DNA of 64,000 bases, taken from contig NC_134028.1 of NCBI RefSeq assembly GCF_964204645.1, positions 17,615,653-17,679,652 on the forward strand, given 5' to 3'. The translations under genes and the position numbers were made by a program. Numbering within the stretch: position 1 is the first letter of the stretch; the number at the start of each line of letters is the position of its first letter. This document shows, one piece after another, positions 1-31,869 of the stretch. This DNA is from Tubulanus polymorphus. Lineage: Eukaryota; Animalia; Nemertea. A model generated the notes under the pieces. The model saw only the letters and a program-made list of their open reading frames with translations, was not told the DNA's origin and made no database searches.

Positions 1-414
1 AAATCTATACGCTACAAATATAACAATAACAGTTCCACCTAAAATCCAAATTATTTCATATTTCTGTTGTTCTTTACTTGGTGTATAATAATCTGATAAT
101 TTAGGTTTGTATAGACGTAATTTTTCTTTATTGCTTACCGCGTTATATAAACTCATTGCATCATCGACTGATTGAAAATCTCTATGTGAAATCTTCTGAT
201 CATATAATTTCTTGTTAATATAATCCATATAGTTTTGCCTCTTTTCTCTATATTCTTCTGCTCCTTTATTGTATTTTTCTAATGCTAAGTTATGACTTCT
301 TTGTTCTCCTAATGAACTATTTTTATCAATATCCTTAAATAAATAACCACCACCAGTAAATGCTAAAGCGTTAACAATTGCCGATCCTATAATAGTTATA
401 ATTGCAGAAGCCAT
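1..414 (-). CDS. Polinton conserved protein with hydrophobic N- and C-termini (homolog of 21437-21847), truncated by the window edge
   Basis: Reverse strand reads MASAIITIIGSAIVNALAFTGGGYLF from ATG 414. Confidence 0.8.
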   Translation of the reverse strand, partial: MASAIITIIGSAIVNALAFTGGGYLFKDIDKNSSLGEQRSHNLALEKYNKGAEEYREKRQNYMDYINKKLYDQKISHRDFQSVDDAMSLYNAVSNKEKLRLYKPKLSDYYTPSKEQQKYEIIWILGGTVIVIFVAYRF

Positions 415-438
415 TTATTTAGTAAAATAATTACGCAT

Positions 439-660
439 TTATATGGGAGGAATATATTTTTGTTTTTCCAAATAATCAATAGTTAAATTAGATAAAGTAA
501 CTGCTAATGTTAATTTTAAGATATCATTTATATCAAATCTATCAATATTAACACTTCCCATTTTGAATACTTTTTTTAATACCATTGAATAACCAAAAGT
601 TCCAACTGATAGTAATGCTCCATTATATAATCCAGTTATTATCCACTTATTATCACTCAT
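439..660 (-). CDS. Polinton small (73 aa) predicted membrane protein
   Basis: Intact ORF with hydrophobic segments and a TAAATG start; homolog of the frameshifted 21189-21412. Confidence 0.75.
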   Translation of the reverse strand: MSDNKWIITGLYNGALLSVGTFGYSMVLKKVFKMGSVNIDRFDINDILKLTLAVTLSNLTIDYLEKQKYIPPI

Positions 661-1015
661 TTATTTATCAAAAAAATTACTATCATCAAAATATTTAGTT
701 ATCTTATTTATAATTATTTCAACATTTATTTCATTACTAGTTTCATGATTATCATATATTTTGGTTAATATGTTTTTAATATCATCTATGATAAAATCTT
801 CATCTAATTCATAAAATCTTCAAGATTCTCTAATTAAATTAGTAATCCTTTCTACATTTAAAGTTTCTTTATCTATTGTTTTTTCATACTCAAATGTTGT
901 TTCATTAGAAAATGCAATATTTTTAATATGTGTAATTACATCATTAATGTTAAATTTCTTCCTCATGTTTAAAATCAAACCCAAAACATATACTCGGTCC
1001 AACAGTTATATTCAT
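661..1015 (-). pseudogene. Polinton hypothetical protein (homolog of 20829-21188), frameshifted
   Basis: KFNINDVITHIKNIAFSNETTFEYE matches the 119-aa ORF of the full copy. Confidence 0.75.
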
Positions 1016-1031
1016 TTATATAATGAAAAAA

Positions 1032-1636
1032 TTACTCTCTACATCTTATAACTAATTCATATATCACAGGAAAGTTATTTAAATCAATTAAATATCCATT
1101 ATGATTTCTTTAATTTGAAATTATTGAAATGTGGAATGCAAGGTTTAAAATCACATTCTGTTAAATTATAATTTAGTTGAGTTCCAAATTGTTTAACATT
1201 TTTTAATGGTAAAATATTTAGTATACTAGAATTGCAAGTTTTATCTTTAGTTGCTTCAAATGTTTTTTTAGGATCAATTAAATTGCAATAAATATAGAAA
1301 TGTGTGCTAGGTATTATATATGGTGTAGTATCAACATTTGAATAAAGTTTATCTGGTGTAATTCCTAACAGTTTAGCTACAGGTTTTTTAACTGAAAATT
1401 GATATTTTTCATTATGAGCTAACCCTATCTTCATTTTATTTCCTGATTGAAAAAAATAAATGTTCAAGACTTTTATCCGATACATTGTAAAGAGTATTAC
1501 ATAAACTTATATTAACTAATTTTAAATCAACACAATTCTTGAATTCTCTATCTAATTGAACTAGTAAATTATGTGATTTATAATTTGTAAGTTTTCTTGA
1601 ATCAACAAATATTCTGTATTCTTTTAATTCTACCAT
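1032..1636 (-). pseudogene. Polinton minor capsid protein (penton), with internal deletion/frameshifts
   Basis: MVELKEYRIFVDSRKL...HFYIYCNLI...LPLKN matches 20055-20812. Confidence 0.75.
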
Positions 1637-1653
1637 TTATTTTACATATTTTC

Positions 1654-2007
1654 TTATTCGAAATCTATTTCATGGTGCCCTTTTTCATTCTTACCTTTGT
1701 ATACGAAATAGAAATCTCCAGAACATAATTCTTCTAGATCTTCACTTGATAATCTATGAAATCTATCTGGTAAATATGTTCTGAATTTATATGTATTTCC
1801 TTTTAATCCTTCATATTCTAAGTGTATAACTAATTTATCTCCATGTTTGTTAGTAACTGTATCAATATTTGTAATTAGATATTTCTTATGGATTATTAAT
1901 TCTTTTAACTTCTTAAATTTATAATCTACTGATTTGACATTTGAAGTATCTTTTATTCTATCTAGAAATAATTTGTTGTTCTCACTGTGTGTTTGTTTAC
2001 TCTCCAT
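1654..2007 (-). CDS. Polinton 117-aa protein downstream of PolB (candidate OB-fold ssDNA-binding protein)
   Basis: Intact and near-identical to 19684-20037. The function is inferred from position and a beta-rich pattern only. Confidence 0.7.
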   Translation of the reverse strand: MESKQTHSENNKLFLDRIKDTSNVKSVDYKFKKLKELIIHKKYLITNIDTVTNKHGDKLVIHLEYEGLKGNTYKFRTYLPDRFHRLSSEDLEELCSGDFYFVYKGKNEKGHHEIDFE

Positions 2008-2036
2008 TTATAATACATATTTTTATTAAAATTTGA

Positions 2037-5000
2037 TTAACACGTTAGAATTCTTTTCATTATCTCGTTCTCTTTTGTTTCTTCTCTTTTAAATTTTAAG
2101 TATTCATCTAAATTACAACCATAAGCAACTGTATGAATTCCTTCATCCAGAATATTTTTTTATCATCAAATGGGTTTAGACTTATCTTTTCAATTTCTTC
2201 AATAAACATTTCATGATCTTCAGATCTTAAACATCTCATCTTATGTTTTCTAACTTCTTCATTGAATATACAATTGATGTAATCTTTGAAATGAATATTC
2301 TTTTCTACTACACTTTTGGTTATTCCTTTTAACTTTTTAGCTTCATGTTCTTTAGTTTTATATGAATACATTTTAGATCTAATACCGATGAATTCAATCA
2401 TTTCTTCACCACCTAATTCATCTTTGAATTTACCGGGAACTTTTTTATTATCATTGCTAAACAATTCATGATCTTTAGGATAATTACTGAAATCAAAATG
2501 ATGTTTTAATGTTTTTAAATCATCAGTTATGTTATTAGTTTTTATCTTTAATATGTAAGAATCGGTATCAAAATATAAGATTTCTATATGTTTTTCTCCA
2601 AAAAGTGGTTATAATACATTATAATAGAATTCATACATTAGTAATTTTGATAATTCTAAAACTAAAGCACCAACATAGATTGGTTTATTAAATTTAATTG
2701 ATGTTCTTCTCATCTTAACTGCAGCTAAATTTTCATCAAATATTCTGTTACCTAAAAACTTAGGATATGATTGTAAATGCCTTATCCTTTTACCATTACT
2801 AACTAACTCAATATCATTTCTATTTCTAATATTTTCACAAGTCTTACCATAGAATGCATTGTTCATTAGTTTGAAGAAATCTTTCTCAAAATCAGTTTTA
2901 GCTTCAGTTCTCTGTTTGGTGTTAAAATCTATATATTTTTCTAACCACTTAGATTGAGTAAATGAAATATAACTATGTACTTTTTTAGCATCATTCCTTG
3001 TTTTAGATAAAACTTTAACATTCTATAATGTACTACATAATTATATTTATCTTCTTGAGTTACCATTAACTTTTCTGTATGAATATGATTTTCGGGTTTA
3101 ATTCTTTTTTGATAACTTGATAATTCTTCATGAGTTACAGTTTTATGTTCTGGACAGTATGCTAGATTTCTAGATTTAAATTTAATATGTTCAGGATATT
3201 CTAAATCGACAATAAAGAAGTAACCAGTAACTGAATCATCTGCAATATCTAGGATTCTTTTCTTCCAATCAAATTTATCATTATTTTCATGTTGTGAAAC
3301 TTCACTTATTTCAAATACTCCATAAGGTTGTGGTTCCATCATTGCCCAACCATACAAATTATTTGCATCTATATATAATAACTTATATCCAGGGTTATCA
3401 TTTACATTGAAATATCTATCCCCTAATACACCTAAAACTCCTCCTCTTATAGATTTTTCAAATAATAATAATTGATCTATATTTGTTAACAAATCCATTT
3501 TTATATCTGTAAATTTTAAACCACAATCCCATGTTAAACCTGGGCTAGAATAACAATGACATGGATCAATATTGAAATATTTTAGGTTTACATCTCTAAA
3601 CCTTTCGAATATATCGGTTAATAATAATACATCTGATTTTAGATATGAATCTACTAATTGTCCATGATTTTGAAATGATTCCAAATATTCAATGTTCTAT
3701 TATAGACTTCATCTTTAACATATTCATTTTTTAATTCATCATAGAATTGTTCTTTTAATAATTCAGTTATGTTAAAATCATTATGATTTTTATAGAAAGA
3801 ATATGGAATTGCGCCTTTATATCTCATTTATTGAAAATCATCATTATTTGGGTAGTGTTGCTTTAATATTTTTAATTCATCATCAGCTAATGATTTTGAT
3901 AAGTTATCTAATGAACTATTTAAAAATCTATATGAATCTATAAATCTTAGGCAACCAAATTGGAATGATATATAATTCTCAGATGTTCTAGCTAACATTT
4001 TAAATTTATAAGTTGGTATTTTATCTTTTGATCTATTTGAATTTAATCTTTCTATTTCATTATTAATTTCTTCTATTTTATGGCATAACTGTTTGATAAA
4101 TAAATGAGCATCATATCCTGATAAATTATGAAATATAACTGGTACAAAGTTAATTTTCTTAGCTTGTAAGTTACAATTCTCATGTGCAGCACCTCTAAAC
4201 TTTCCATTCAAATGATCATGGTCTCTCACTTTTTTATCTTTATAATTAAATATCTTTTCACAATAATAACATTTATCTGCAAACTCAAATGCTTCTTTAT
4301 CTTCTTCTGTCATTATAATTTCTATATTTTTATTTAACTTTTCATTAAATTTTATTTCATATTCAATTAATAAGTCACAAAAATGATTAATAACATTTTC
4401 ATTTCTATAATGATAATATTCACTTTTAATTAGTTCTGGATAATCAGATTTAATATATAACCCGAAAGCTGCAGCTGATTGATGAATCTTTTTAATAGTA
4501 TTTGTTTTTGGTGGTTCATCTGAAAAATCATTTTCATTAGAATTTAATTTCTTTCTTTTATAATATATTTCTTTTCTATCTTGATCAGTTAATTCTTAAT
4601 TTAATGATTCAAAATCTCCATGTATAACAAATGGTACTTTATTTTTGTAATCATATTTTTTGAATTCTAATATTTTATCCTTTTCATTTGGTAAAACTAA
4701 TTTACAATAATCATGATTTTCACATAATTGTTTATGATTTAATAATGCACTTTCAGTACTGAATTTATGTAAACATTTTCTACATAGATATATTTTATTA
4801 TCAAAATCATTTTCTGATTTAAAAAATAAATCGATTCTTTTAATCCACATATAATGATTCTCATAATATAATATATCTATAACATCGTTTGAATCATAAT
4901 CTTTTGATAGGTATAAAGGTTCTAATGTATAATGTTTTATATTGTTACCTTTTGTATTTGGTAATTTGATTAAATCAAATACATTTATCTTTATATTATT

Positions 5001-5578
5001 ATCTCTTTCTATTTTTGGGATGTTTTTAATTCTAACAGGATACTTATCTATCTTATAATTATTTTCAAATGGTTTATAATGAGTTAATCTAAAACTATGT
5101 GTAATATCTTCTGTTGGATGTAAGCAACTTATAATTGTCCATAGAAAACATTTATCATCTTCATTTTGTACATTTATTACAGCATTAGTTTTAAATGGTA
5201 GTTTAATATAACTCGATGCTTCAATATCTGGTTCTTTATAACATGATAAATTATTTTCATCTATTGGTTTTGATTTAGTTAACTTATTATATTTTGTGTT
5301 ATAAACATGTAAAGTCATAAATATTATTTCATCAAATATTAAACCTGATCCTTCAAAATATTTCTCTTCTATTTTAGTTTTTACTTCATTATAACATTTA
5401 TCTAATTTATCATCTATATGTTGTTTAGATATAATATGTTGTGAATGAGAATTTATATTATATATTGGTTTATCTTCAGATTTTATGAATTTAACTTTAG
5501 AAGATATACTAATTTTAGGGTATTCAACATCAGTTATTATTTTTACAATATTTTTCATATTTTCTAAATGTTTTCCAT
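2037..5578 (-). pseudogene. polB: Protein-primed family B DNA polymerase (pPolB), multiply frameshifted, N-terminal zinc fingers deleted
   Basis: ORF fragments carry LLYIDANNLYGWAM (motif A), MNNAFYGKT (motif B), VPGKFKDE, and the EndoVII-like CYYC..RDHDHLNGKFRGAAH..CN insert. Confidence 0.92.
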
Positions 5579-5657
5579 TTTAATACGAAAATTTTTATTA
5601 AAATTGATTTTAGAAGTTATTCATTTATATTTTATTCATATATATGAATATTTTAAG

Positions 5658-5809
5658 AGTAATAGGGGTTTAGTTGTTTCATATCAAAGGTTGAAGGGGC
5701 GAGTGAGTAAAAAATAAAAAATAAATTCGAGTGTGCGAGAATTTATTTTTTATTTTTTACTCACTCGACCCTTCGACCTTTGGTATGAAACAACTAAACC
5801 CCTATTACT
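5658..5809. repeat. 152-bp terminal imperfect hairpin of Polinton copy 1
   Basis: AGTAATAGGGGTTTAGTTGTTTCATA... at 5658 is the reverse complement of ...TATGAAACAACTAAACCCCTATTACT ending at 5809. Confidence 0.93.
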
Positions 5810-6511: not shown

Positions 6512-6853
6512 AGTAATAGGGGTAATAGGCTTTCAGATCAAAGGTCGAAGGGTCGAGCTCATAAAAAATGAAAAATATGAAAATAATAACAATTTCTACT
6601 TGAATTAGTCGCGAAACTCATAAAAAATGAAAAATAATTCTCACACACTCGAATTTATTTTTCATTTTTACTCGCTAGAAAAAAGTGTGAGTAAAGTGTG
6701 AGTGAAATAAATTCGAGCGCGCGAGAATTATTTTTCATTTTTTATGAGTTTCACTCCTAATTCAAGTAGAAATTGTTATTATTTTCATGTTTTTCATTTT
6801 TAATGAACTCGACCATTCAACCTTTAACCTGAAAGCCCATTACCCCTATTACT
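6512..6853. repeat. 342-bp terminal imperfect hairpin
   Basis: AGTAATAGGGGTAATAGGCTTTCAG... pairs with ...CTGAAAGCCCATTACCCCTATTACT; the inner arms are also complementary. Confidence 0.92.
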
Positions 6854-7003
6854 CTTAAAATAATCATATACATGAATAAAATATATATGAATAACATATA
6901 AATTGATAGATTATTCAATATAAAAGTGTGAGTGAAATAATTCATATTTAAAACATTGAATATTTATATTTGAATGAGTTTTAATAAAAGTTTTGTTATT
7001 AAA

Positions 7004-7427: not shown

Positions 7428-7609
7428 TGTAAATTAGATGATGAATTTAGAAAATTCAATCCTAATGAAAATTGCATTGTTATTGCGGAGGTAAATATTT
7501 AAAATCACATAAATCAAAGCATTATGAAACAATTAAACATAAAAACTGGTGTAAAGAGTAACAATTCTACATTATAATTATTGAATTGAGTTAAATGATT
7601 TAAATATCT

Positions 7610-9325
7610 AATAGACTGTTAAAATGATAAATTGTTTGACAGTTGAAATGATAAATTGTTTGACAGTTGAAATGATAAGACAGTTGAAATGATAAATTGT
7701 TTGACAGTTGAAATGATAAATTGTTTGACAGTTGAAATGATAAATTGTTTGACAGTTGAAATGATAAATTGTTTGACAGTTGAAATGATAAATTGTTTGA
7801 CAGTTGAAATGATAAAACAGCTGAAATGATAAATTGTTTGACAGTTGAAATGTTAAATTGTTTGACAGTTGAAATGATAAATTGTTTGACAGTTGAAATG
7901 ATAAGACAGTTGAAATGATAAATTGTTTGACAGTTGAAATGATAAATTGTTTGACAGTTGAAATGATAAATTGTTTGACAGTTGAAATGATAAGACAGTT
8001 GAAATGATAAATTGTTTGACAGTTGAAATGATAAATTGTTTGGCAGTTGAAATGTTAAATTGTTTGACAGTTGAAATGATAAATTGTTTGACAGTTGAAA
8101 TGATAAATTGTTTGACAGTTGAAATGATAAATTGTTTGACAGTTGAAATGATAAGACAGCTGAAATGATAAATTGTTTGACTGTTGAAATGTTAAATTGT
8201 TTGACAGTTGAAATGATAAATTGTTTGACAGTTGAAATGATAAATTGTTTCACAGTTGAAATGATAAATTGTTTCACAGTTGAAATGTTAAATTGTTTGA
8301 CAGTTGACATGATAGGACAGCTGAAATGATAAATTGTTTGACTGTTGAAATGTTAAATTGTTTGACTGTTGAAATGATAAATTGTTTGACAGTTAAAATG
8401 ATAAATTGTTTGACAGTTGAAATGATAAATTGAAATGATAAATTGTTTGACAGTTGAAATGATAAATTGTTCGACAGTTGAAATGATAAATTGTTTGACA
8501 GTTGAAATGTTAAATTGTTTGACAGTTGAAATGATAAATTGTTTGACAGTTGAAATGATAAATTGTTCGACTGTTGAAATGATAAATTGTTTGACAGTTG
8601 AAATGTTATATTGTTTGACAGTTGAAATGTTAAATTGTTTGACAGTTGAAATGATAAATTGTTTTACAGTTGAAATGTTAAATTGTTTGACAGTTGAAAT
8701 GACAAATTGTTTGACAGCTGAAATGATAAATTGTTCGACTGTTGAAATGATTTGACAGTTTAAATGATAAATTGTTTGACAGTTGAAATGATAAATTGTT
8801 CGACTGTTGAAATGATAAATTGTTTGACAGTTGAAATGATAAATTGTTTGACAGTTGAAATGATGAATTGTTTGAGAGTTGAAATAATAAATTGTTTGAC
8901 AGTTGAAATGTTAAATTGTTTGACAGTTGAAATGATAAATTGTTTGACAGTTGAAATGATAAATTGTTTGACAGTTGTAATGATAAATTGTTTGACAGTT
9001 GAAATGATAAATTGTTCGACTGTTGAAATGATAAATTGTTTGACAGTTGAAATTATAAATTGTTTGACAGTTGAAATGATAAATTGTTCGACTGTTGAAA
9101 TGATAAATTGTTTGACAGTTGAAATGATAAATTCTTTGACAGTTGAAATGATAAATTGTTCGACTGTTGAAATGATAAATTGTTTGACAGTTGAAATGAT
9201 AAATTGTTCGACTGTTGAAATCATAAATTGTTTGACAGTTGAAATGTTAAATTGTTTGACAGTTGAAATGATAAATTGTTTGACAGTTGAAATGTTAAAT
9301 TGTTAGACTGTTGAAATGTTTAATT
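7610..9325 (+). repeat. 24-bp tandem array (TTGACAGTTGAAATGATAAATTGT)n, about 70 units, with 17-bp deletion variants
   Basis: Directly visible; it produces the spurious MINCLTVE/ISTVKQFI peptide repeats. Confidence 0.95.
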
Positions 9326-9454
9326 GTTTGGTTGTAAATTTAATTGTTATTTGATTTAATCATTTAAAAGTTTAATATTTTTAAAATGATTATAAAATAT
9401 TTAATTAAAAACTAGCAAATATTTTATGAACTGTTTAATTTTTCTCTTAAATAA

Positions 9455-9532
9455 ATGGATGGTTTCATCCCAACTGGGAAAAGTGATTTGAAACATTATT
9501 TAGTTGCTGGAGGTTTAATATTAGCAGCATAA
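9455..9532 (+). CDS. Putative 25-aa hydrophobic micro-ORF (MDGFIPTGKSDLKHYLVAGGLILAA)
   Basis: Preceded by TTTTTCTCTTAAATAAATG like the Polinton structural genes; partly duplicated in inverted orientation (ATG at 9649, minus strand). Confidence 0.4.
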   Translation: MDGFIPTGKSDLKHYLVAGGLILAA

Positions 9533-9581
9533 TTTTTGACATTTTTTAATAGCTGTCAAACAATTTATCATTTTAAATGTC

Positions 9582-10351
9582 AATATTAAACCTCCAGCAA
9601 TTAAATAATGTTTCAAATCACTTTTCCCAGTTGGGATGAAACCATCCATTTATTTAAGAGAAAAATTAAACAGTTCATAAAATATTTGCTAGTTTTTGAT
9701 TAAATATTTTATAATCATTTTAAAAATATTAAACTTTTAAATGATTAAATCAAATAACAATTAAATTTACAACCAAACAATTTAACATTTCAACAGTCTA
9801 ACAATTTAACATTTCAACTGTCAAACAATTTATCATTTCAACTGTCAAACAATTTAACATTTCAACTGTCAAACAATTTATGATTTCAACAGTCGAACAA
9901 TTTATCATTTCAACTGTCAAACAATTTATCATTTCAACAGTCGAACAATTTATCATTTCAACTGTCAAAGAATTTATCATTTCAACTGTCAAAGAATTTA
10001 TCATTTCAACAGTCGAACAATTTATCATTTCATCAGTCGAACAATTTATCATTTCAACTGTCAAACAATTTATCATTTCAACTGTCAAACAATTTATCAT
10101 TTCAACAGTCAAACAATTTATCATTTCAACTGTCAAACAATTTATCATTTCAACTGTCAAACAATTTATCATTTTAACAGTCAAACACTTTATCATTTCA
10201 ACAGTCGAACAATTTATCATTTTAACAGTCGAACAATTTATCATTTCAACAGTCGAACAATTTATCATTTCAACAGTCGAACAATTTATCATTTTAACAG
10301 TCGAACAATTTATCATTTCAGCTGTCAAACAATTTATCATTTTAAATGTCA
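9582..10351 (-). repeat. Inverted duplicate of the 9522-leftward unique segment plus 24-bp array
   Basis: 9582-9800 is the reverse complement of ~9300-9522, and the array then continues in reverse orientation; 59-bp non-palindromic spacer. Confidence 0.92.
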
Positions 10352-10870
10352 AACAATTGCAATATCTTTATAAGAATTTTTATTAACTGATTCACACTGA
10401 ATTGCAATATCTTTAAAAGAATTATTGTTTTCTAAATCACATTGAATTTCAATATTTGATGTATTTTCATTATAAATAATTTGTTTATTATCAAAATTAC
10501 AATAATATAATTGTCGTTTTTCAATTCTTAAGTCTATCCTATCATTACCTTTTGAAAGTATTATATCACTTTCTCTTTCATTAAAAGGAAATTTAAGAAT
10601 ATTTATTATGTTTTCATCTAAATTACCTTTATAATTTAAAACTGTATTAAATATTTTAGGATTTTTGGCGCCATTATCTAAAGTATCTATTAGTTCAGTT
10701 ATTAAATATGTTTCATTTAATACTATTTGATTAATTACAGTAATATTATTAATTTTATATTGTCTTCCATATACTAAATTTTTTGCTGAGATACAATTTT
10801 TAATGTTAAATAGTGAAAATAATTCATTCAATTCTTTTATTTCAATTTTAAATTCCATTTCTTCTTTCAT
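10349..10870 (-). CDS. Hypothetical 173-aa protein of the non-autonomous element
   Basis: Intact ORF with TATATAAATG start; paralog at 7004-7427; C-terminal repeated (K/I)xIxIQC motifs. Confidence 0.7.
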   Translation of the reverse strand: MKEEMEFKIEIKELNELFSLFNIKNCISAKNLVYGRQYKINNITVINQIVLNETYLITELIDTLDNGAKNPKIFNTVLNYKGNLDENIINILKFPFNERESDIILSKGNDRIDLRIEKRQLYYCNFDNKQIIYNENTSNIEIQCDLENNNSFKDIAIQCESVNKNSYKDIAIV

Positions 10871-10884
10871 TTATATAGCAAAAT

Positions 10885-11140
10885 TATTACTCACACTTTA
10901 CTCACACTTTTATTATTGAAAATCTAACTTATTTTACTCACACTTTACACACACTTTTAACATTGAAAATCTAACTTATTTTACTCACACTTTTAACGTC
11001 GAAAATCTAACTTATTTTACTCACACTTTACTCACACTTTTAACGTTGAAAATCTAAATTATTTTACTCACACTTTACTCACACTTTTAACATTGAAAAT
11101 CTAACTTATTTTACTCACACTTTACTCACACTTTTAATAT
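10885..11140. repeat. ~47-bp tandem repeat (TTATTTTACTCACACTTTACTCACACTTTTAACATTGAAAATCTAAC), 5-6 units
   Basis: Directly visible upstream of the 173-aa ORF. Confidence 0.9.
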
Positions 11141-11159
11141 TGACCAATTTTATCATTTT

Positions 11160-11408
11160 ATTAGCGCTTTTATATTAAAAAGTGTGTTTATTTTTGGAAA
11201 AAAGCAAAAAATTTAATTTTTCTAAACTTAATTTTATTTCTTAATTCGCGGATACTTTCTCTCCATATTTAGTTTTTATCTTTTCTAATTTCAATATTTT
11301 ATGTTCACTTTCTTTTGTAACATCAACTAACTTTTTTATTTCAAATTGTTTTTTTGCTGGTTTTATTCTGTTATTTATTGTTGCTAAGAATGCTTTTCTA
11401 TCTCCCAT
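11160..11408 (-). pseudogene. Divergent homolog of the Polinton 117-aa (SSB-like) gene
   Basis: MGDRKAFLATINNRIK..FEIKKLVDV..EHKILKLEKIKTKYGEKV resembles LFLDRIK..YKFKKLTEL..KYLITNIDTVTNNYGDKL; start TTTTTTTTCCTTATAAATG; stop at 11241. Confidence 0.55.
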
Positions 11409-11493
11409 TTATAAGGAAAAAAAATTACTTGTGGTGATGAGTGGTGTCTCGTACTCTCGTACTCTGATCTGAAACCCACATCTTCTAATTACT

Positions 11494-14958: not shown

Positions 14959-15145
14959 ATGTCGGCTATACAGCAATTAAAGACGGCTAATCTCGCTGGG
15001 CTCAATAAATACAGCCGCGACGAATTAGCGGAATATATACTGTCCCAGACTCAGAATCCCGGACCCACAACCGACGGGAAGGCAGGCGATGATGAACCGC
15101 CTGTAGATGCCGGTGCCGTCGGAGGTTTCGAAATGATTACACGAC
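14959..15145 (+). pseudogene. LINE ORF1, 5' part
   Basis: MSAIQQLK...EMITRQ joins in frame to ILESEKRL at ~31870 once the Polinton and one TSD copy are removed. Confidence 0.8.
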
Positions 15146-15742
15146 AGTAATAGGGGTAATGGGCTTTCAGATCAAAGGTCGAAGGGTCGAGCTCATTAAA
15201 AAACAAAACATTAAAAGTAATTAAAAACTATAATATATTTTCATAACCGTGTGTATTTTATATTAAAACTAAATATTTATTCTAAGATATCAATAATCTA
15301 AAAAGCATATTGTATTAAATCAATTGGTCGCTCCGCTTCGCTACCGCTCCGCTCCGCGACCAATTGATTTATTTACAATACACAAATTCATATAATCAAA
15401 TATATTCAAATGATAATAATTATTCTATTGTTCAACTGAAATACACACGGTTTGAAAATATATTATAGTTTTAAATTACTTTTAATATTTGTTATTAATG
15501 AACTCGACCATTCAACCTTTAACCCGAAAGCCCATTACCCCTATTACTCTGAAAATATTCATATACATGAATAACATTTAAATCATTGAACTTCTAAAAT
15601 CAATTTTGATAAAAAATTTAGTATTAAAATGGAAGCAAATAAGTACTACTGTCCAACATGTAATATCAATGTAGATAAATCCCAAAAAGCAAGACACAAT
15701 AAAACTAAAACACATTTAGAGAATAAATTGAAACTAGAATAT
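15146..15742 (+). repeat. Left TIR, containing a 403-bp hairpin (15146-15548) and the first 38 PolB codons
   Basis: Reverse complement of 31266-31863; internal palindrome ending CCCCTATTACT at 15548. Confidence 0.95.
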
Positions 15743-18700
15743 AAAGATGATATATTAGAAACTAAATTAGATGAATTAAAGAATGAAAAAGAAATATATA
15801 AATGTGATACATGTTATCAACCATTCAGTGATAAAAGATATTATAATGAACATTTAAAATCTAAAAGTCATATTAGAAATAAGAATAATGATATTTTAGG
15901 TGAAGATTATTTTGATAAAGATAATGATAAGAAACAGAAGACAATTAAAAACATAAAAAATAAATTAAACAATAAAAGACCATACATGGAAGATGTAAGA
16001 AATTATATTAATTCATTAGATAATAAAAAAGATATAGAGATAACCGAAGCATTTAAAAGTGATATTGGTCCAGCAGCTGTCGAGTTTAAATTTCATAAAG
16101 GAAAAACATTAGAAGAAAATAAAAAACATTTAGAAAATATGAAAAATATTATAAAGATAATTACTGATGTTGAATATCCTAAAATTAGTATATCAGTTAA
16201 AGTAAAGTTTATAAAATCTGAAGATAAACCAATATATAATATAAATTCTCATTCACAACATATTATTTCAAAACAACATATAGATGATAAATTAGATAAA
16301 TGTTATAATGAAGTAAAAACTAAAATAGAAGAGAAATATTTTGAAGGATCTGGTTTAATATTTGATGAAATAATATTTATGACTTTACATGTTTATAACA
16401 CAAAATATATTAAGTTAACTAAATCAAAACCAATTGATGAAAATAATTTATCATATTATAAAGATGATAGTATAAATGGAACAAGTTATATTAAACTACC
16501 ATTTAAAACTAATGCTGTAATAAATGTACAAAATTTTGATAATAAATGTTTTCTATGGGCTATAATAAGTTGTTTACATCCTGCAACTTATAATATTTGT
16601 AGATTAACTCATTATAAACCATTTGAAAATAATTATAAGATAGATAAGTATCCTGTTATAATTAAAGACATCCCAAAAATAGAAAGAGATAATAATTTAA
16701 AGATAAATGTATTTGATTTAATCAAATTACCAAATACAAAAGGTAACAATATAAAACATTATACATTAGAACCTTTATATCTATCAAAAGATTATGATTC
16801 AAACGATGTTATAGATATACTATATTATGAGAATCATTATATGTGGATTAAACAAATCGATTTATTTTTTAAATCAGAAAATGATCACCATAAAATATAT
16901 CTTTGTAGAAAATGTTTACATAGATTCAGTAATGAAAGTGCATTATTAAATCATAAACAATTATGTGAAAATCATGATTATTGTAAATTAGTTTTACCAA
17001 ATGAAAAGGATAAAATATTAGAATTCAAAAAATATGATTACAAAAATAAAGTACCATTCGTAATATATGGAGATTTTGAATCATTAAATAAAGAACTAAC
17101 TGATCAAGATAGAAAAGAAATATATTATAAAAGAAAGAAATTAAATTCTAATGAAAATGATTTTTCAGATGAACCACCAAAAACAAATACTATTAAAAAG
17201 ATTCATCAATCAGCTGCTGCTTTCGGGTTATATATAAAATCTGATTATCCAGAACTAATTGAAAGTGAATATTATAATTATAGAAATGAAAATGTTATCA
17301 ATCATTTTTGTGACTTATTGATTGAATATGAAATAAGATTTAGTAAATTATTGAATACAAATATAGAAATTATAATGACAGAAGATAAAGAAGCATTTGC
17401 GTTTGCAGGTAAATGTTATTATTGTGAAAAGATATTTAATTATAAAGATAAAAAAGTAAGAGACCATGATCATTTGAACGGAAAGTTTAGAGGCGCTGCA
17501 CATGAGAATTGTAACTTACAAGCTAAGAAAATTAATTTTGTACCAGTTATATTTCATAATCTATCAGGATATGATGCACATTTATTTATCAAACAGTTAT
17601 GCCATAAAATAGAAGAAATCAATAATGAAATAGAAATATTAAATTCAAATAGATCAAAAGATAAAATACCAACTTATAAATTTAGAAGGTTAGCTAAAAC
17701 ATCTGAGAATTATATATCATTCCAATTTGGTTGCCTAAGATTTATAGATTCATATAGATTTTTAAATAGTTCATTAGATAACTTATCAAAATCATTAGTT
17801 GATGATGAATTGAAAATATTAAAGCAACACTACCCAAATAATGATGATTTCAAATTAATGAGATATAAAGGAGCAATTCCATATTCTTTCTATAAAAATC
17901 ATAATGATTTTAACATAACTGAATTATTAAAAGAACAATTCTATGATGAATTAAAAAATGAATATGTTAAAGATGAAGACTATAATAGAACATTGAATAT
18001 TTGGAATCATTTCAAAATAGAAAATCATGGGCAATTAGTAGATTTATATTTAAAATCAGATGTATTATTATTAACCGATTTATTCGAAAGGTTTAGAGAT
18101 GTAAACCTAAAATATTTTAACATTGATCCTTGTCATTGTTATTCATCACCAGGATTAACATGGGATTGTGGATTAAAATTTACAAATATAAAAATGGATT
18201 TGTTAACAAATATAGATCAATTACTATTATTTGAAAAATCTATAAGAGGAGGTGTTTCAGGTGTATTAGGTGATAGATATTTCAATGTAAATGATAACCC
18301 TGGATATAAGTTATTATATATAGATGCAAATAATTTGTATGGTTGGGCAATGATGGAACCACAACCTTATGGAGTATTTGAATTAACTGAAGTTTTACAG
18401 AATAAAAATAATGATAAATTTGATTGGAAGAAAAGAATCCTAGATATTGCAGATGATTCAGATACTGGTTACTTCTTTGTTGTAGATTTAGAATATCCTG
18501 AACATATTAAATTTAAATCTAGAAATCTAGCTTACTGTCCAGAACATAAAACTGTAACTCATGAAGAATTACCAAATTATCAAAAAAGAATTAAACCCGA
18601 AAATCATATTCATACAGAAAAGTTAATGGTAACTCAAGAAGATAAATATAATTATGTAGTACATTATAGAATGTAAAAGTTTTATTTGAATCAAGGAATG

Positions 18701-19654
18701 ATTCTAAAAAAAGTACATAGATATATTTCATTTAGTCAATGTACGTGGTTAGAAAAATATATAGATTTTAACACCAAACAGAGAACTGAAGCTAAAACTG
18801 ATTTCGAGAAAGATTTCTTCAAGTTAATGAATAATGCATTCTATGGTAAGACTTGTGAAAATATTAGAAATAGAAATGATATTGAGTTAGTCAGTAATGG
18901 TAAAAGAATTAGACATTTACAAACATATCCTAAATTTATAGGTAACAGAATATTTGATGAAAATTTAGCCGCAGTTAAAATGAGAAGAACATCAATGAAA
19001 TTTAATAAACCAATCTATGTTGGCGCTTCAGTTTTAGAATTATCAAAATTACTAATGTATGAATTCTATTATAATGTATTACAACCACTTTTTGGAGAAA
19101 AACATATAGAAATATTATATTTTGATACAGATTCTTACATATTAAAGATAAAAACTGATAACATAACTGATGATTTAAAAACATTAAAACATCATTTTGA
19201 TTTTAGTAACTATCCTAAAATTCATGAATTGTTTAGCAATGATAATAAAAAAGTTCCCGGTAAATTCAATGAATTAGGCGGTGAAGAAATGATTGAATTC
19301 ATAGGTATTCGATCTAAAATGTATTCATATAAAACTAAAGAACATGAAGCTAAAAAGTTAAAAGGAATAACCAAAAGTGTAGTAGAAAAGAATATTCATT
19401 TCAAAGATTACATCAATTGTATATTCAAAGAAGAAGTTAGAAAACATAAGATGAGATGTTTAAGATCTGAAGATCATGAAATGTTTATTGAAGAGATAGA
19501 AAAGATAAGTCTAAACCCATTTGATGATAAAAGATATATTTTAGATGATGGAATTCATACAGTTGCTTATGGTTGTAATTTAGATGAATACTTAAAATTT
19601 AAAAGAGAAGAAACAAAAGAGAACGAGATAATGAAAAGAATTCTAACGTGTTAA
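15629..19654 (+). CDS. polB: Protein-primed DNA polymerase B with N-terminal C2H2 fingers and EndoVII-like insert; one premature stop at 18674-18676
   Basis: ExoI YGDFES, FHNLSGYD, YLKSDV, motif A YIDANNLYGWAM, motif B KLMNNAFYGKT, motif C YFDTDSY. The TAA replaces the TTA (Leu) seen in copy 1. Confidence 0.96.
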
Positions 19655-19683
19655 TCAAATTTTAATAAAAATATGTTATTAAA

Positions 19684-20037
19684 ATGGAGAGTAAACAAGC
19701 ACACAGTGAGAACAACAAATTATTTCTAGATAGAATTAAAGATACTACAAATGTAAAATCTGTAGATTATAAATTCAAAAAGTTAACAGAATTAACAATC
19801 CATAAGAAATATCTAATTACAAATATTGATACAGTTACTAATAACTATGGAGATAAATTAGTTATACACTTAGAATATGAAGGATTAAAAGGAAATACAT
19901 ATAAATTTAGAACATATTTACCAGATAGATTTCATAGATTATCAAGTGAAGATTTAGAAGAATTATGTTCTGGAGATTTCTATTTCGTATACAAAAGTAA
20001 GAATGAAAAAGGGCACCATGAAATAGATTTCGAATGA
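19684..20037 (+). CDS. 117-aa protein, candidate OB-fold ssDNA-binding protein
   Basis: Intact in both copies and adjacent to PolB; KKLxEL...YxI...YGDKLVIxL...YLPxRF pattern. The function is inferred. Confidence 0.7.
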   Translation: MESKQAHSENNKLFLDRIKDTTNVKSVDYKFKKLTELTIHKKYLITNIDTVTNNYGDKLVIHLEYEGLKGNTYKFRTYLPDRFHRLSSEDLEELCSGDFYFVYKSKNEKGHHEIDFE

Positions 20038-20054
20038 GAAAATATGTAAAATAA

Positions 20055-20812
20055 ATGGCGGAATTAAAAGAATACAGAATATTTGTTGATTCTAGAAAAC
20101 TTACAAATTATAAATCACATAATTTATTAGTACAATTAGATAGAGAATTTAAGAATTGTGTTGATTTAAAATTAGTAAATATAAGTTTATGTAATTCTTT
20201 TTACAATATATCGAATAAAACTATTGAACATAGAGCTTTTTTAATTTTTAATAAAAATAAAAATGAATGGGTCTATATATATTTAAAACCGGGGTTATAT
20301 AATTTAGATACATTAGCACAAGAAATTAATAGAAAAGCCTGGCACAAATTAGGTAGTAGTTCTGGGTTTAGTGTTAGATTTTTAAAAAGTGAGAGTTCTG
20401 ATAGAATAAAGATAAGGTTGTCTAATAGTGAAAAACATAAATTTATGGTAAAAAAACCTATAGCTAAACTGTTAGGAATTCTTCCAGATAGATCTTTTAC
20501 AAATATTGACGCTACTACACCAAACTTAATACCTTACACACATTTTTATATTTATTGCAATTTAATCGATCCTACAAAAACATTCGAAGCAACTAAAGAT
20601 ATAACTTGTAATTCTGGTTTACCATTTTACCATTGAAGAATGTTAAACAATTTGGAACGCAAATAAATTATAATTTAGCTGAATGTGATTTCAAACCATG
20701 CATTCCTAAATTCAATAATTTTAAATTAGAAATAAGAGATCATAATGGATATTTAATTGATTTGAATAACTTTCCTGTAATTTATGAATTAGTTATAAGA
20801 TGTAAAGAGTAA
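20055..20812 (+). pseudogene. Minor capsid protein (penton, single jelly roll), frameshift near 20615
   Basis: IFVDSR...LVNISLCNS.YN...PGLYN...FYIYCNLI...; C-terminus IRDHNGYLIDLNNFPVIYELVI in the shifted frame. This pattern is typical of Polinton pentons. Confidence 0.8.
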
Positions 20813-20828
20813 TTTTTTTATTATATAA

Positions 20829-21188
20829 ATGAATATAACTGTTGGACCGAGTATATGTTTTGGGTTTGATTTTAAACGTGAGAAAGAAATGAAATTTAAC
20901 ATTAATGATGTAATTACACATATCAAAAATATTACATTTTCTAGTGAAACAACATTTGAGTATGAAACAACAATAGATAAAGAAACTTTAAATGTAGAAA
21001 AGATTACTAATATAATTAGAGAATCTTTAAGATTTTATGAATTAGATGAAGATTTTATCATAGATGATATCAAAAACATATTATCCAAAATATATGATAA
21101 TCATAAAAGTAGTAATGAAATAAATGTTGAATTAATTATAAATAAGATAACTAAATATTTTGATGATAGTAATTTTTTTGATAAATAA
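20829..21188 (+). CDS. Polinton hypothetical protein (119 aa)
   Basis: Intact ORF, T-run/TAAATG start, conserved in copy 1. Confidence 0.75.
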   Translation: MNITVGPSICFGFDFKREKEMKFNINDVITHIKNITFSSETTFEYETTIDKETLNVEKITNIIRESLRFYELDEDFIIDDIKNILSKIYDNHKSSNEINVELIINKITKYFDDSNFFDK

Positions 21189-21412
21189 ATGAGTGATAAT
21201 AAGTGGATAATAACTGGATTATATAATGGCGCATTACTATCAGTTGGAACTGTTGGTTATTCAATGGTATTAAAAAAAGTATTCAAAATGGGAAGTGTTT
21301 TAATGTTGATAGATTTGATATAAATGATATCTTAAAATTAACATTAGCAGTTACTTTATCTAATTTAACAATTGATTATTTGGAAAAACAAAAATATATT
21401 CCTCCCATATAA
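21189..21412 (+). pseudogene. Small membrane protein, frameshifted (intact at 439-660)
   Basis: MSDNKWIITGLYNGALLSVG...QKYIPPI with a small insertion near 21300. Confidence 0.75.
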
Positions 21413-21436
21413 ATACATAATTTTTTTGCTAAATAA

Positions 21437-21847
21437 ATGGCGTCTGCAATTATAACTATTATAGGATCGGCAATTGTTAACGCTTTAGCATTTACTGGTG
21501 GTGGATATTTATTTAAACATATTGATAAAAATAGTTCATTAGGAGAACAAAGAAGACATAATTTAGCATTAGTGAAATATAATAAAGCTGCAGAGAAAAG
21601 AGGCAAAACTATATGGATTACATCAATAAAGAATTATATGATCAGAAGATTTCACAGAGATTTTCAATCAGTTGATGATGCAATGAGTTTATATAACGCG
21701 GTAACCAATAAAGAAAAATTACATCTATACAAACCTAAATTATCAGATTATTATACCCCAAGTAAAGAACAACAGAAATATGAAATAATATGGATTTTAG
21801 GTGGAACTGTTATTGTTATATTTGTTGCTTATAAGTTTACTAATTAG
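21437..21847 (+). CDS. Polinton conserved protein with hydrophobic N-terminus and C-terminal TM helix
   Basis: MASAIITIIGSAIVNALAFTGGGYLF...RRHNLA...PKLSDYYTPS...IIWILGGTVIVIFVAY; the middle appears locally frameshifted relative to copy 1. Confidence 0.75.
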   Translation: MASAIITIIGSAIVNALAFTGGGYLFKHIDKNSSLGEQRRHNLALVKYNKAAEKRGKTIWITSIKNYMIRRFHRDFQSVDDAMSLYNAVTNKEKLHLYKPKLSDYYTPSKEQQKYEIIWILGGTVIVIFVAYKFTN

Positions 21848-21867
21848 TAATTTTTTTTGCTAAATAA

Positions 21868-22302: not shown

Positions 22303-22318
22303 TTTTTTAATTATATAA

Positions 22319-23706: not shown

Positions 23707-23722
23707 TTTTTGTATTATGTAA

Positions 23723-25180: not shown

Positions 25181-25200
25181 TTAATTTTTTTGTTAAATAA

Positions 25201-26449
25201 ATGAGTGGGAGTTATATCAATCCTTCGAAGAATCATAGAATATCTAATGCTATTAAAGCAGAAAGATCACATCGTATAATTACTCATAACCCTTCTAATA
25301 TTAATCCCGATGAAACTTTATACGTTAGAATCCCTCGATTAACACAAAATACTTTTTACGTTCCAAATAGTATTTATTTATCGGCTGATATAAAAGTAAT
25401 CGGTAATAATAATAATTATGTTGTTGATAATGTTGGAAGATATTTGATTAAAAAGTTAATAATAAAGATTGGTCCAGAAACAGTTTTCTCATTAGATGAT
25501 TATAATTTATTTATGCATTATAAAGATTTATGGTTAACTAAAGAAAATAGAAATAATATGATATTTCAAGGCATCCAACCAGAAAACCAAAATAAATTAA
25601 GATCTGAAGCCAATAATGCAGTAGTAACTAATGCTGTAGATAATTTGATAAAAAAAATTTATGGAAGCAAATATAAAATTCCATTAGACTTTGAATTGAT
25701 AAATAATAATGCACCTTTATATAAATACGCAATTCAAGAAGACGTTATATTCGAAATAACATTTGCTCCTGTAAATGAAATTGTATTATCTAGCGTTGTT
25801 AAAGATATGAGTTATGAATTATCGAATATATGTTTAGAATATGACACAGTAACTGATGAAAATATTTCAAGTATAATTCAAACTAAATACAATCAAGGAT
25901 TTTCATTATTATATGATTATATTGATAAATTTAAAACCGTAACTATTAATGCAAATGATGAAATAATTAATGAGAATATTAACTTCCCAAGAAGATCTAT
26001 TAAAGGTATATTAATATTTTTTACCATTGCAACATATACTAATGGCGCAATAAATGTTGATAATTATTATAATCCTGAAATAACAAAAGTAGAAATAACT
26101 ATCGAAGGAATAGCAAATAAAATATTTTGTCAAGGAATGAGAATGATTGATCAATGGCCAGAAATTAGAAAACATTTTATGAATGAAAAAGTAAAATCAT
26201 CTGAAAATTGTAACATTAATCAAATTGATTATTATACCGGCAATAAATATGCATTATGGTTAGATTTTAGAACAACAGAGGATAATTCATTACATGGTTC
26301 TGGAAAAAAAACTACGGAACACTAAAGATGGAATACAATTATTCATGACAAAGAATAAAGGAATCAAAAATTTTAAAATGCACATTTATATTATATCTGA
26401 CGCGCAATTAAATATTGTAAATTCTCAATTAGATAGTGTTATGTATTAA
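25201..26449 (+). CDS. Major capsid protein (double jelly roll), frameshift in the A-run near 26305
   Basis: ITHNPSNINPDETLYVRIPRL...NICLEYD...NINFPRRSIKGIL..YNPEITKVEITIEG...LWLDFRT.EDN.LHGSG; size and motifs fit this Polinton MCP family. Confidence 0.82.
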
Positions 26450-26481
26450 AATTTTAACTTTAATAAAAATATATATAATAA

Positions 26482-27432: not shown

Positions 27433-27953
27433 TTATTTTATAAATTTATATTCATAGGGAAATTGTAGTCTCAGTAATAATTTTGAACCTTTATTATTCT
27501 TTAATTTATTCATATATTCATCATGTAATTCAGTAGGTATAATTTGATTTTCTTCCAATGATTGTTGCATAGATTTTTTATCTTTGTTATAAAATAAAAC
27601 TAGAAATCTAATGTTTTCTCTAAAGTCTTTAACAATTGAATTATATTTTTGATTTAAAACCCATGTTGTTATCCCAAAATGTCTCCCAGAGAAAGCTAAA
27701 TAACATAACTCACTTTCTCTCACTTTTGAATCATGTAAACTTGCGCAATCATCTACAATGAATAATGTATTTGATCCTTTATAAGTATCAATTGCTATTT
27801 TTATACAATTATCTAAATTTTCTTTTACTGTTTTAGGAAATAATTCTTATAAATAGTTTCTAACAAATCTAATATGAAATGTGTTTTACCACAATTGGTT
27901 ACACCAGTAACTAACATATTATGCGGTTCAAATATAAATAAATCTTTATTCAT
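27433..27953 (-). pseudogene. A32/FtsK-like DNA packaging ATPase with an internal deletion
   Basis: Reverse strand MNKDLFIFEPHNMLVTGVTNCGKTHF (Walker A), LFIVDDCA (Walker B), LAFSGRH..TTWVLNQKY..FRENI. Confidence 0.88.
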
Positions 27954-29043
27954 TTATTCTTTTAATTTTACTAGATAAAATCCATTCATTAAATTTATCA
28001 TCGTATCCTTTATATTTCACCGAAGAATACTTTTTTCCTTTAAGAGTTTTTGTTTTCAATACTTTTTCTATTTTGTATTCTATTTCATCTGGGTTTGGTA
28101 CAAGTGATAATTCTTGTTCATAGAAATAACCTAATATTTCTTCATCTTTTAGATCTTCTAATTTATAAACAAAAGGTTTAGTTAATATTATCTTTTTAAT
28201 TTTAAATATTTCTTCAGTAAAATTTGGGGTATAACCTTTATAAAAGGTTTTTCTATATTTAGATATTCTTACGTGTTGTCCAATTTTGAATCTAGGTTCA
28301 CCGAAATCGTGTGTAACAAACGCCCCATATAAATTATTCCAAACTATTTCCGAATTATCTTCTTTTCTAGCTTGTATAGGTTTCATATTTATAGAACTAT
28401 GTTTAGAATTATTATAACCTTTCACTAAATCATCTAACATATTTATAGACTCACCGATATATTTATATGTTTCATTAGCAGTAAAATATTTCCACATTCT
28501 AGTTTTCAATGTTTTATTAAATCTTTCTATAATAGATGCTTTTTTATCTGAGTGTGTTGAAAAATATTTTACATCGTTATCAGATAATAGTTTTTTAAAA
28601 TGTTTGTTATAAAATTCCTTACCTTCATCAAATTGTATCTTATCTGGAATAGCTTCTTTAAATATAGATTTAAAAGCATTTGTAACTTCTATTCCAGTTT
28701 TATTTTTGATTGGAATTGACCATGCGTATCGACTGAATATATCTATAACATTCAGTATCCAGAAATATGCTTTGTTGTATTCCTCTAAGTTCTTCATGTC
28801 AATTAAATCTGCTTGCCATTGTCGATCGATATATGAAACCATAACTTTCCTTGTTAAATAAGTTTTATCCATTTTCTTGTGTATTTGATATGTTGGTTGA
28901 TTTTGTAACCATGATTTTAATTCACTATATTTTATACCACCATTATCAGATTTAATTTTATTCCATAATTCTGAAACGTTAGAATATGATACTTCACTTT
29001 CTGGGTTATAATATAAATCTCTTAAATATTGTCCTTTTTTCAT
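27946..29043 (-). CDS. int: Retroviral-like (rve) integrase with C-terminal chromodomain, intact
   Basis: WQADLIDM (D), IQFDEGKEF (D), IIERFNKTLK (E); YKIEKVLK...VKYKGYDDKFNEWI chromo-like tail. Confidence 0.95.
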   Translation of the reverse strand: MKKGQYLRDLYYNPESEVSYSNVSELWNKIKSDNGGIKYSELKSWLQNQPTYQIHKKMDKTYLTRKVMVSYIDRQWQADLIDMKNLEEYNKAYFWILNVIDIFSRYAWSIPIKNKTGIEVTNAFKSIFKEAIPDKIQFDEGKEFYNKHFKKLLSDNDVKYFSTHSDKKASIIERFNKTLKTRMWKYFTANETYKYIGESINMLDDLVKGYNNSKHSSINMKPIQARKEDNSEIVWNNLYGAFVTHDFGEPRFKIGQHVRISKYRKTFYKGYTPNFTEEIFKIKKIILTKPFVYKLEDLKDEEILGYFYEQELSLVPNPDEIEYKIEKVLKTKTLKGKKYSSVKYKGYDDKFNEWILSSKIKRINE

Positions 29044-29049
29044 TCTATT

Positions 29050-30373: not shown

Positions 30374-31048
30374 TCATTTCGGATCCTTGATATCAAATTC
30401 CTCAACGTATTGTTCATTATTTTGATTATTGTTCCATTGATCAATAAATTTCTTTGCCTTTGTTAACTGTTCTAAATATAACTGTAAATCTAGTTTATTA
30501 GATTTGATTTGATTTTCTTTCTTTTCTAAAGTCCTTAAATTTTTCCAACCCCAAATAAGTTTTTTATTGTATTCATCATTCATGTTAAATTTAGATATTG
30601 GTAACACGTGATCAATATGGTAATAATCCCCATAATTATCTATATTCATTTTATCATCGAATTGAAATATAATCCATGATTTGAGAAATTCATCTGAACA
30701 ACCCAATAAATTAGATAGTGTTTCTGAATGTGTTTCTTTGTTGAATAATTGTGTTAATCTAGATCTTAAGCATTGTTTTAATCTAAAATTAAGATCTGTT
30801 TGATATCTTTCTCTCATATATTCTGTCATATAATCATTATAAGCTTCTCTATTATCTTCTCGATATTGTTTAGTATATAGTTTAGTACAAGTTTTACAAC
30901 AATATTGAAAACCATCTTTGCTAATCTTACGCTTACTAAATTCTGTTAATGATTTATCTAATTCACATTTAGAACACTTCTTGTAGTATATGTTTATAAC
31001 GCCAGTGTTATTTGTAATATTGATAATTTGTGGTTGTTCTGGTTCCAT
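30374..31048 (-). CDS. Zn-ribbon plus HNH endonuclease (type common in large DNA viruses)
   Basis: KKCSKC..K.L.EF...G.Q..CK.C; LLGCS..FL; YHIDHVLPIS...NLRTL...EN..KSNK. Confidence 0.85.
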   Translation of the reverse strand: MEPEQPQIINITNNTGVINIYYKKCSKCELDKSLTEFSKRKISKDGFQYCCKTCTKLYTKQYREDNREAYNDYMTEYMRERYQTDLNFRLKQCLRSRLTQLFNKETHSETLSNLLGCSDEFLKSWIIFQFDDKMNIDNYGDYYHIDHVLPISKFNMNDEYNKKLIWGWKNLRTLEKKENQIKSNKLDLQLYLEQLTKAKKFIDQWNNNQNNEQYVEEFDIKDPK

Positions 31049-31127: not shown

Positions 31128-31379
31128 TCATTCCTCGCTGCTTTTGATAAGTTGTTTCGATTCCTTGATATCAAATTCCTCAACGTATTGTTCATTATTT
31201 GGATCATTATTCCATAATTCAATAAATTTCTTTGCCTTTGTTAACTGTTCTGAATATAACTGTAAATATTCTAGTTTCAATTTATTCTCTAAATGTGTTT
31301 TAGTTTTATTGTGTCTTGCTTTTTGGGATTTATCTACATTGATTTTACATGTTGGACAGTAGTACTTATTTGCTTCCAT
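31128..31379 (-). CDS. Chimeric 83-aa ORF: PolB N-terminal zinc finger (from the TIR) fused to a duplicated HNH C-terminus
   Basis: First 38 aa are near-identical to PolB; LQLYSEQLTKAKKFI..NNEQYVEEFDIK is duplicated from 30374-30490. Confidence 0.7.
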   Translation of the reverse strand: MEANKYYCPTCKINVDKSQKARHNKTKTHLENKLKLEYLQLYSEQLTKAKKFIELWNNDPNNEQYVEEFDIKESKQLIKSSEE

Positions 31380-31863
31380 TTTAATACTAAATTTTTTATT
31401 AAAATTGATTTTAGAAGTTCAATGATTTAAATGTTATTCATGTATATGAATATTTTAAGAGTAATAGGGGTAATGGGCTTTCGGGTTAAAGGTTGAATGG
31501 TCGAGTTCATTAATAACAAATATTAAAAGTAATTTAAAACTATAATATATTTTCATAACCGTGTGTATTTCAGTTGAACAATAGAATAATTATTATCATT
31601 TGAATATATTTGATTATATGAATTTGTGTATTGTAAATAAATCAATTGGTCGCGGAGCGGAGCGGTAGCGAAGTGGAGCGACCAATTGATTTAATACAAT
31701 ATGCTTTTTAAATTATTGATATCTTAGAATAAATATTTAGTTTTAATATAAAATACACACGGTTATAAAAATATATTATAGTTTTTAATTACTTTTAATG
31801 TTTTGTTTTTTAATGAGCTCGACCCTTCGACCTTTGATCTGAAAGCCCATTACCCCTATTACT
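31266..31863 (-). repeat. Right TIR with hairpin (31460-31863)
   Basis: Near-exact reverse complement of the left TIR. Confidence 0.95.
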
Positions 31864-31869
31864 CACGAC

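Follow-up and report, generated by a model that had tools for sequence, protein, structure and literature searches.

The window analysed here, 64,000 nucleotides of Tubulanus polymorphus DNA (contig NC_134028.1), contains a 16.7-kb element at 15146-31863 that starts with AGT and carries the 6-bp target-site duplication CACGAC on either side (Table 1). Its left and right terminal inverted repeats (TIRs) are 98.8% identical over 598 columns. The element is a Polinton/Maverick, since TIRs, a 6-bp target duplication, a protein-primed family B polymerase, an integrase, the capsid fold (through the homologue P0133) and a fragment of the A32 ATPase were all found. In these features, as well as in its length, AGT start, TP/vOTU polymerase and double jelly-roll capsid, it resembles Polintons as described in the available parts of PMC8097293 and PMC11161782. 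The reading frame of its polymerase gene is broken by an in-frame stop. Named homologues in insects, a coral and a mussel, together with the neighbouring retrotransposons, pointed to an animal host. Alpha adintoviruses, or group 2 Polintons, are recognized by an OTU domain together with a PF03175-class PolB; PF03175 was present in many of the polymerase homologues, and the ORF of the element and its homologue P0001 gave no PF03175 match.

The structural model of P0133 resembled the capsids of iridovirus, PBCV-1 and mavirus (best E 1.5e-15). No minor capsid protein was identified in the main element, several ORFs of which have no assignment, and scans of viral contigs for capsid and integrase genes gave zero matches. 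For an adenain-type maturation protease, 24 GxHW-bearing ORFs of related loci yielded no match, the matches of these ORFs falling on other genes, and no such motif was found.

Table 1. Coordinates of the main element, its genes and predicted domains, and its relatives in the window.
Feature	Position	Strand	Remarks
Left target-site duplication	15140..15145	.	CACGAC; matches 31864-31869
Right target-site duplication	31864..31869	.	CACGAC; matches 15140-15145
Left TIR	15146..15742	+	597 bp; takes in the start of the polymerase ORF
Right TIR	31266..31863	-	
Left terminal palindrome	15146..15548	3'-terminal strand -	403 bp; outer arm from 15146, inner arm to 15548
Right terminal palindrome	31460..31863	3'-terminal strand +	404 bp
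Family B polymerase ORF	15629..19654	+	76% identity to P0001 over 1357 columns
Predicted terminal-protein domain	16034..16396	+	residues ~136-256; LF/PAD-like fold, invariant Ser241
Predicted vOTU protease domain	16499..16861	+	Cys307, His403; OTU matches, Z 7.6
EndoVII/HNH-like insert in polymerase	17405..17521	+	PF02945 E 1.4e-4, under the curated cut-off
Capsid gene, frameshifted	25201..26446	+	double jelly-roll via model of the 75% identical homologue P0133
A32-like packaging ATPase fragment	27436..27846	-	broken gene; PF04665 E 1.3e-6
Retroviral-like integrase with chromodomain	27946..29043	-	PF00665 E 4e-9; PF00385 E 1.3e-3
HNH-like nuclease gene	30374..31048	-	HNH_4 E 0.057 only (weak)
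Second family copy	6..5809	-	91-94% identity; polymerase frameshifted; extends past window edge
Terminal hairpin of second copy	5658..5809	.	152 bp
Terminal hairpin of gene-poor derivative	6512..6853	.	342 bp
Homologous terminus without inner arm	11424..11493	-	30 of first 46 nt as in the main end, gap-free

Predicted priming domains and candidate nucleases

The polymerase keeps its protein-priming domains, a terminal-protein domain and a vOTU protease domain, both predicted from structural models. Residues 136-256 were modelled as a four-stranded sheet with two helices and aligned to the LF/PAD domain of Y-family polymerases over 103 residues (Z 7.8, rmsd 3.1), and residues 291-411 were modelled like OTU proteases. 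Structural Z-scores of this size are middling, and we trusted them only jointly with the residues Ser241, Cys307 and His403, which were invariant in 79 of 79 sequences. Next to a glycine, Ser241 lies in the model within the loop that joins helix 2 to strand 4; the linking residue of the terminal-protein domain has been described at such a fold and position (PMC11161782, available part). A Foldseek search with the N-terminus of the polymerase gave no match at E≤0.001, and its top rows were all Y-family polymerases. The priming and protease motifs were found in both copies in the window.

The original prediction had named the EndoVII-like insert of the polymerase and the HNH gene as candidate resolvases of the element ends; on present evidence neither is specific to hairpin-ended elements. 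The same insert is found in L108, L121 and L150, three related loci in which no terminal palindrome is seen at the TIR ends. The HNH gene gave a weak match only, and in the close relative L132 its homologue has a different position, directly after the polymerase. No hairpin-specific enzyme was found, and among the ORFs of the element that were scanned, some of which had no match of any kind, there was no Rep/HUH nuclease.

The HNH-like gene is probably mobile. A direct repeat of approximately 130 bp lies at this gene (30368-30496 and 31146-31277). The final ~130 bp of the gene, duplicated, are joined to the start of the polymerase in the right TIR and form a short chimeric ORF (30368-31277). 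The minus strand at 39829-42239 carries pieces of another Polinton-type polymerase, richer in GC, which has an EndoVII insert and is 27% identical to P0001.

Terminal palindromes and probable pairing of the 3' strand

An 11-nt terminal motif occurs exactly eight times in the window, against 0.44 expected by chance. The occurrences form four inverted pairs, at 5658/5809, 6512/6853, 15146/15548 and 31460/31863, and the main element holds four of the eight, as had been predicted. Each pair bounds a segment that folds far better than its shuffled versions: -105 kcal/mol (z -19) for 15147-15548, -112.5 kcal/mol (z -20) for 31460-31863, z -23 for 5659-5809 and z -28 for 6512-6853, with no shuffle of any of the four folding equally well. 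In the predicted folds the first base pairs with the last in all four 3'-terminal strands. The long self-complementary ends that fold exactly to the last base were thereby confirmed, although the 403-bp hairpin is imperfect, approximately 76% self-complementary: its outer ~115 bp are well paired (the first 23 nt of the main element perfectly), the middle is unpaired and the inner stem is small. The shared design claimed for the relatives was likewise found at 152 bp and 342 bp, and the hairpin tips vary freely in length (152, 342 and 403 bp). The terminal palindromes are a family-wide end structure on an otherwise ordinary Polinton.

Active or recent members without the inner arm had been named in advance as evidence against such a design. 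This applies in part: a homologous terminus at 11493 lacks the inner arm, and the other four ends all carry it. The last 400 nt at 11493 fold at only -18 kcal/mol, and the ORF associated with this end is 76% identical to one in the derivative with the 342-bp hairpin. The hairpin-less end is a single copy of undated age. Together, 6512-11493 form a gene-poor, near-palindromic composite centred at about 9552, with tandem arrays of 24 bp and 47 bp and one homologous ORF in each half; its left end is of the hairpin type, its right end is the hairpin-less one, and the two share no target duplication. This composite, which sits inside what we take to be a Pao/BEL retrotransposon, is probably a recombinant of two non-autonomous derivatives.

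Arm orientation was the same in four of four ends: both TIRs of the main element and both relatives have the same arm outside. A mismatch that reads as G.T on one strand is A.C on the opposite strand, and oppositions were counted by a fixed rule for well-aligned stem columns, taking distinct sites only. On the 3'-terminal strands 11 distinct G.T oppositions stood against 2 A.C, with 6 mismatches of other kinds (p = 0.022). The three subfamilies that supply these 11 G.T sites are related, some of the sites being perhaps non-independent, and one of the two A.C oppositions is private to a single TIR. Within the outer 52 nt the count was 7 G.T against 0 A.C. In all four ends the 3'-terminal strand folded 6-10 kcal/mol better than the 5'-terminal strand. 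Subfamily blocks at positions 13-19 and 47-51 are altered in both arms alike, and a G.T at position 35 is kept in all three subfamilies. The mismatches are concentrated in positions 24-47, within the motif that is best conserved between these ends and the hairpin-less relative.

This DNA occurs in four sequencing runs of a single study, the source possibly among them. One raw-read run with the same species label, from a separate study, gave an unphased view of the family. Read depth was approximately 4.5 on the flank and 817 inside the element, which, for a single-copy flank, suggests a copy number of about 100-200. Mixed flanks follow the outer end in 1944 reads. No inner-end position is among the best 6 of 185 loose ends, so that each has fewer than 267 reads, and insertion therefore uses the outer end. 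Reads cross both arms into the interior of the element, with depth continuing from the inner arm inward without a drop, and this ruled out an assembly artefact. Joints skipping approximately 300 bases indicate that short-hairpin subfamilies exist in that individual too. The outer arm had about twice the depth of the inner arm, which may reflect hairpin-less ends or near-perfect hairpins mapping to one arm. Rare strand switches occurred at symmetric positions (15207/15487, 15223/15473 and 15258/15433), at 4-10 reads each against a depth of ~1700.

Among 40 of 174 variants in the reads, 21 lay in the stems. Six of these restore a Watson-Crick pair, two create a G.T on the 3' strand and six more make up three co-varying pairs (29/29%, 28/23% and 57/23%); of the remaining seven, which disrupt a pair or keep a mismatch, three are at the ragged edge of the stem. 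The same 40 variants, whose lowest in-element share was ~19%, included none of the inner arm's five arm-diagnostic sites. The flop orientation thus makes up at most roughly 20% of the reads, which represent integrated copies only, a subset filtered by the integrase, and direct flop-like joints are far fewer. From the fold advantage of the 3' strand, the G.T bias and the compensatory changes, it is very probable that the 3' strand folds back and that the pairing is maintained, in agreement with the original prediction. The pairing is probably under selection on the 3'-terminal strand, for which this evidence is good, if short of conclusive.

Candidate roles of the fold-back ends

We tentatively prefer the explanation that the fold-back end serves a protein-primed Polinton as a local stand-in for the panhandle and as a template for end repair. 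Once a single strand has been displaced or excised, its 3' end would fold in vivo into a long local duplex, which the terminal-protein-primed polymerase would use as its start site in place of a long-range panhandle. If the terminal-protein domain primes opposite the 3'-terminal base, ends would be rebuilt with unchanged orientation and no new enzyme, and the fold-back could act as the template for mending an end that had lost bases. A template switch of the copy-back type may have given rise to the hairpin. In duplex DNA the conserved G.T positions may make the inner copy unfit as an origin or integrase site while leaving it paired in the hairpin. As no hairpin-specific enzyme was found and one homologous end has no hairpin, the hairpin seems to have been added to an ordinary protein-priming system. 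Several points argue against this explanation. Viral or host polymerases would naturally use a template-paired 3'-OH as a primer, so that some self-priming is expected. Mismatches in the most conserved motif would be surprising in a hairpin that has to imitate a duplex binding site. One third of the stem variants work against pairing, and the kept terminal protein would also fit a hybrid mode.

In such a hybrid mode, which we regard as possible but doubtful, the 3' hairpin would self-prime the second strand and the closed end would be regenerated on one side only. Regeneration could proceed through a nick at the outer boundary and terminal-protein-primed patching, or through asymmetric resolution of a dimer junction, with the G.T-spoiled inner arm enforcing a single orientation; a bubble, or junction-resolution, mechanism is known for MVM. 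The exact pairing of the 3' base, perfect over the first 23 nt of the main element, suits self-priming, as the 3'-OH invites extension, and the mismatches in the conserved motif would fit an activity of the outer arm alone when the end is regenerated. The 3'-strand bias is accommodated equally well, the asymmetry of the arms is conserved, and both the near-palindromic derivative at 6512-11493 and the nuclease insert in the polymerase are consistent with this mode. A site-specific nick would, however, be required, the insert is also found in the three loci without a terminal palindrome, and the homologous end at 11493 has no hairpin. AAV ends occur in independent flip and flop forms (PMC11575299, available part), and some parvovirus ends exist in a single form (PMC8242256, available part), which speaks for the hybrid mode. 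The original prediction had proposed a rolling-hairpin or hybrid replication mode. Of this, the 3' fold-back is supported; a rolling hairpin with terminal resolution of the AAV type is not, flop being a minority, and the rolling-hairpin reading is weakened by the single orientation, the kept terminal protein and protease, the non-specific EndoVII insert and the hairpin-less end at 11493.

It is unlikely that the palindromes are near-neutral relics of copy-back template switching whose arms stay similar through occasional arm-to-arm conversion. Copy-back would stop exactly at the terminal base, and the freely differing tips, the rare symmetric strand switches in the reads and the one relative without a hairpin are all as expected of a relic. 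Conversion, however, gives no cause for an excess of G.T on the 3' strand only (11 versus 2), and it would have removed the difference at position 35 in a lineage whose arms have changed together at more than 10 positions. Deamination of the displaced strand would presumably strike the 5' hairpin at least equally.

Still less probable is a role as a release marker, in which a cruciform or lagging-strand hairpin with its base at the host junction is cut there and the element keeps the hairpin of the 3' strand. The base of the stem is the insertion boundary, the polymerase has an EndoVII-like domain, and the 3'-strand bias is predicted here as well. T4 EndoVII cuts four-way junctions. The nuclease insert is, however, unspecific to hairpin-ended elements, arms that are 76% complementary would extrude poorly, and solo hairpins in host DNA are not abundant: among the best 6 of 185 loose ends, no inner-end place reaches 267 reads.

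That the hairpins are independent MITEs inserted at the ends of the element, the origin that the original prediction had named as its own possible undoing, is fitted by their size and shape and is nevertheless exceedingly improbable and refuted for these copies, since the hairpin units have no flanking duplication of their own (it is the element as a whole that the target duplication flanks), all four inner arms lead into one and the same conserved interior sequence, and read depth is steady from inner arm into interior.

Known systems and related loci

Compared with other Polintons, the outer 150-400 bp of each TIR here form a palindrome that is exact through its final base. Neither "hairpin" nor "palindrom" appears as a word in the main text of PMC8097293 or of a preprint on nematode Polintons (10.1101/2023.08.22.554363). 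We found one description of terminal palindromes in related elements, in the available part of a 2026 bioRxiv preprint (10.64898/2026.07.28.741278); subscription papers, supplements, Repbase and Kapitonov and Jurka (2006) were outside our scope and may hold an earlier account for animal Polintons. In that preprint, terminal palindromes are reported for endogenous protist virophages of Halocafeteria seosinensis and for PLV subtype 4, and the idea of hairpin priming is already proposed there. The likeness extends to palindromes within TIRs and an adjoining target duplication. The illustrated palindrome measures 52 nt, the palindromes occur preferentially with replication genes other than pPolB, and the section on palindromes contains no test of selection or orientation. 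In contrast, the palindromes described here are 152-404 nt long, with intact protein-priming domains, strand-biased wobble pairs and a single orientation. Terminal palindromes can accordingly coexist with intact protein-priming domains, opposite to the trend in that preprint.

With the linear replicons of Streptomyces, whose 3' ends fold back and which are protein-primed and repaired on the fold-back template, the ends would share a 3' strand folding through palindromes, terminal-protein priming and a repair template, a likeness of function and not of homology (PMC5449611, available part). The Streptomyces ends have several short palindromes, an internal origin and separate Tap and Tpg proteins, as against one long stem and a fused terminal protein here. 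The panhandle model for adenovirus and PRD1 has the inverted repeats of a displaced strand pair and so restore a duplex origin, direct evidence for the panhandle being described as still lacking (PMC11886824, available part); in the present element each end could pair locally, over no more than 400 nt. The ends share with those of parvoviruses and AAV a terminal palindrome with a paired 3' end, the same at both ends (PMC11575299, PMC8242256, available parts). They differ in that flip and flop are unbalanced, that the scanned ORFs of the element include no Rep/HUH nuclease, and that the element encodes a protein-primed polymerase and an integrase of its own.

The family offers a defined end of 150-400 nt whose mutations indicate one folding strand. 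Natural long, short and hairpin-less versions in one genome make protein priming and self-priming testable against each other on short synthetic DNA. The ends bear on the question of how Polintons leave the chromosome and convert single strands, and the hybrid mode, if true, would make the element a present-day link between the protein-primed and the hairpin-ended DNA viruses of eukaryotes.

A local stem of at least 40 bp was present in 3 of 111 polymerase-related loci, none of them at a proven terminus. Most of these contigs have no ends and short-read assembly may break at palindromes, so the survey says little. Among five loci with TIR-like repeats that were inspected (L108, L121, L128, L150 and L194), none had a terminal palindrome; L150 has a subterminal one at 250-415. 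An intergenic palindrome was seen in another related element (L003:4657-4840). Searching viral contigs with a 15-nt terminal pattern yielded 100 single matches, which we attribute to chance: terminal DNA was shared in none of 211 loci, save for one chance-level match of 27 nt. At L174:5043-5153, a 110-bp palindrome (z ~ -12) lies 300 nt ahead of the gene for a related polymerase, at a step in GC content, and the would-be 3'-terminal strand folds better (-45.3 versus -42.7); this locus is possibly a second hairpin-ended Polinton.

Elsewhere in the window, 47776-50234 contain an array of nested repeats, both direct and inverted, among which are several 300-900-bp palindromes, and 56950-63219 contain an LTR-retrotransposon-like pol followed by a 786-aa, env-like ORF that matches the baculovirus F protein.
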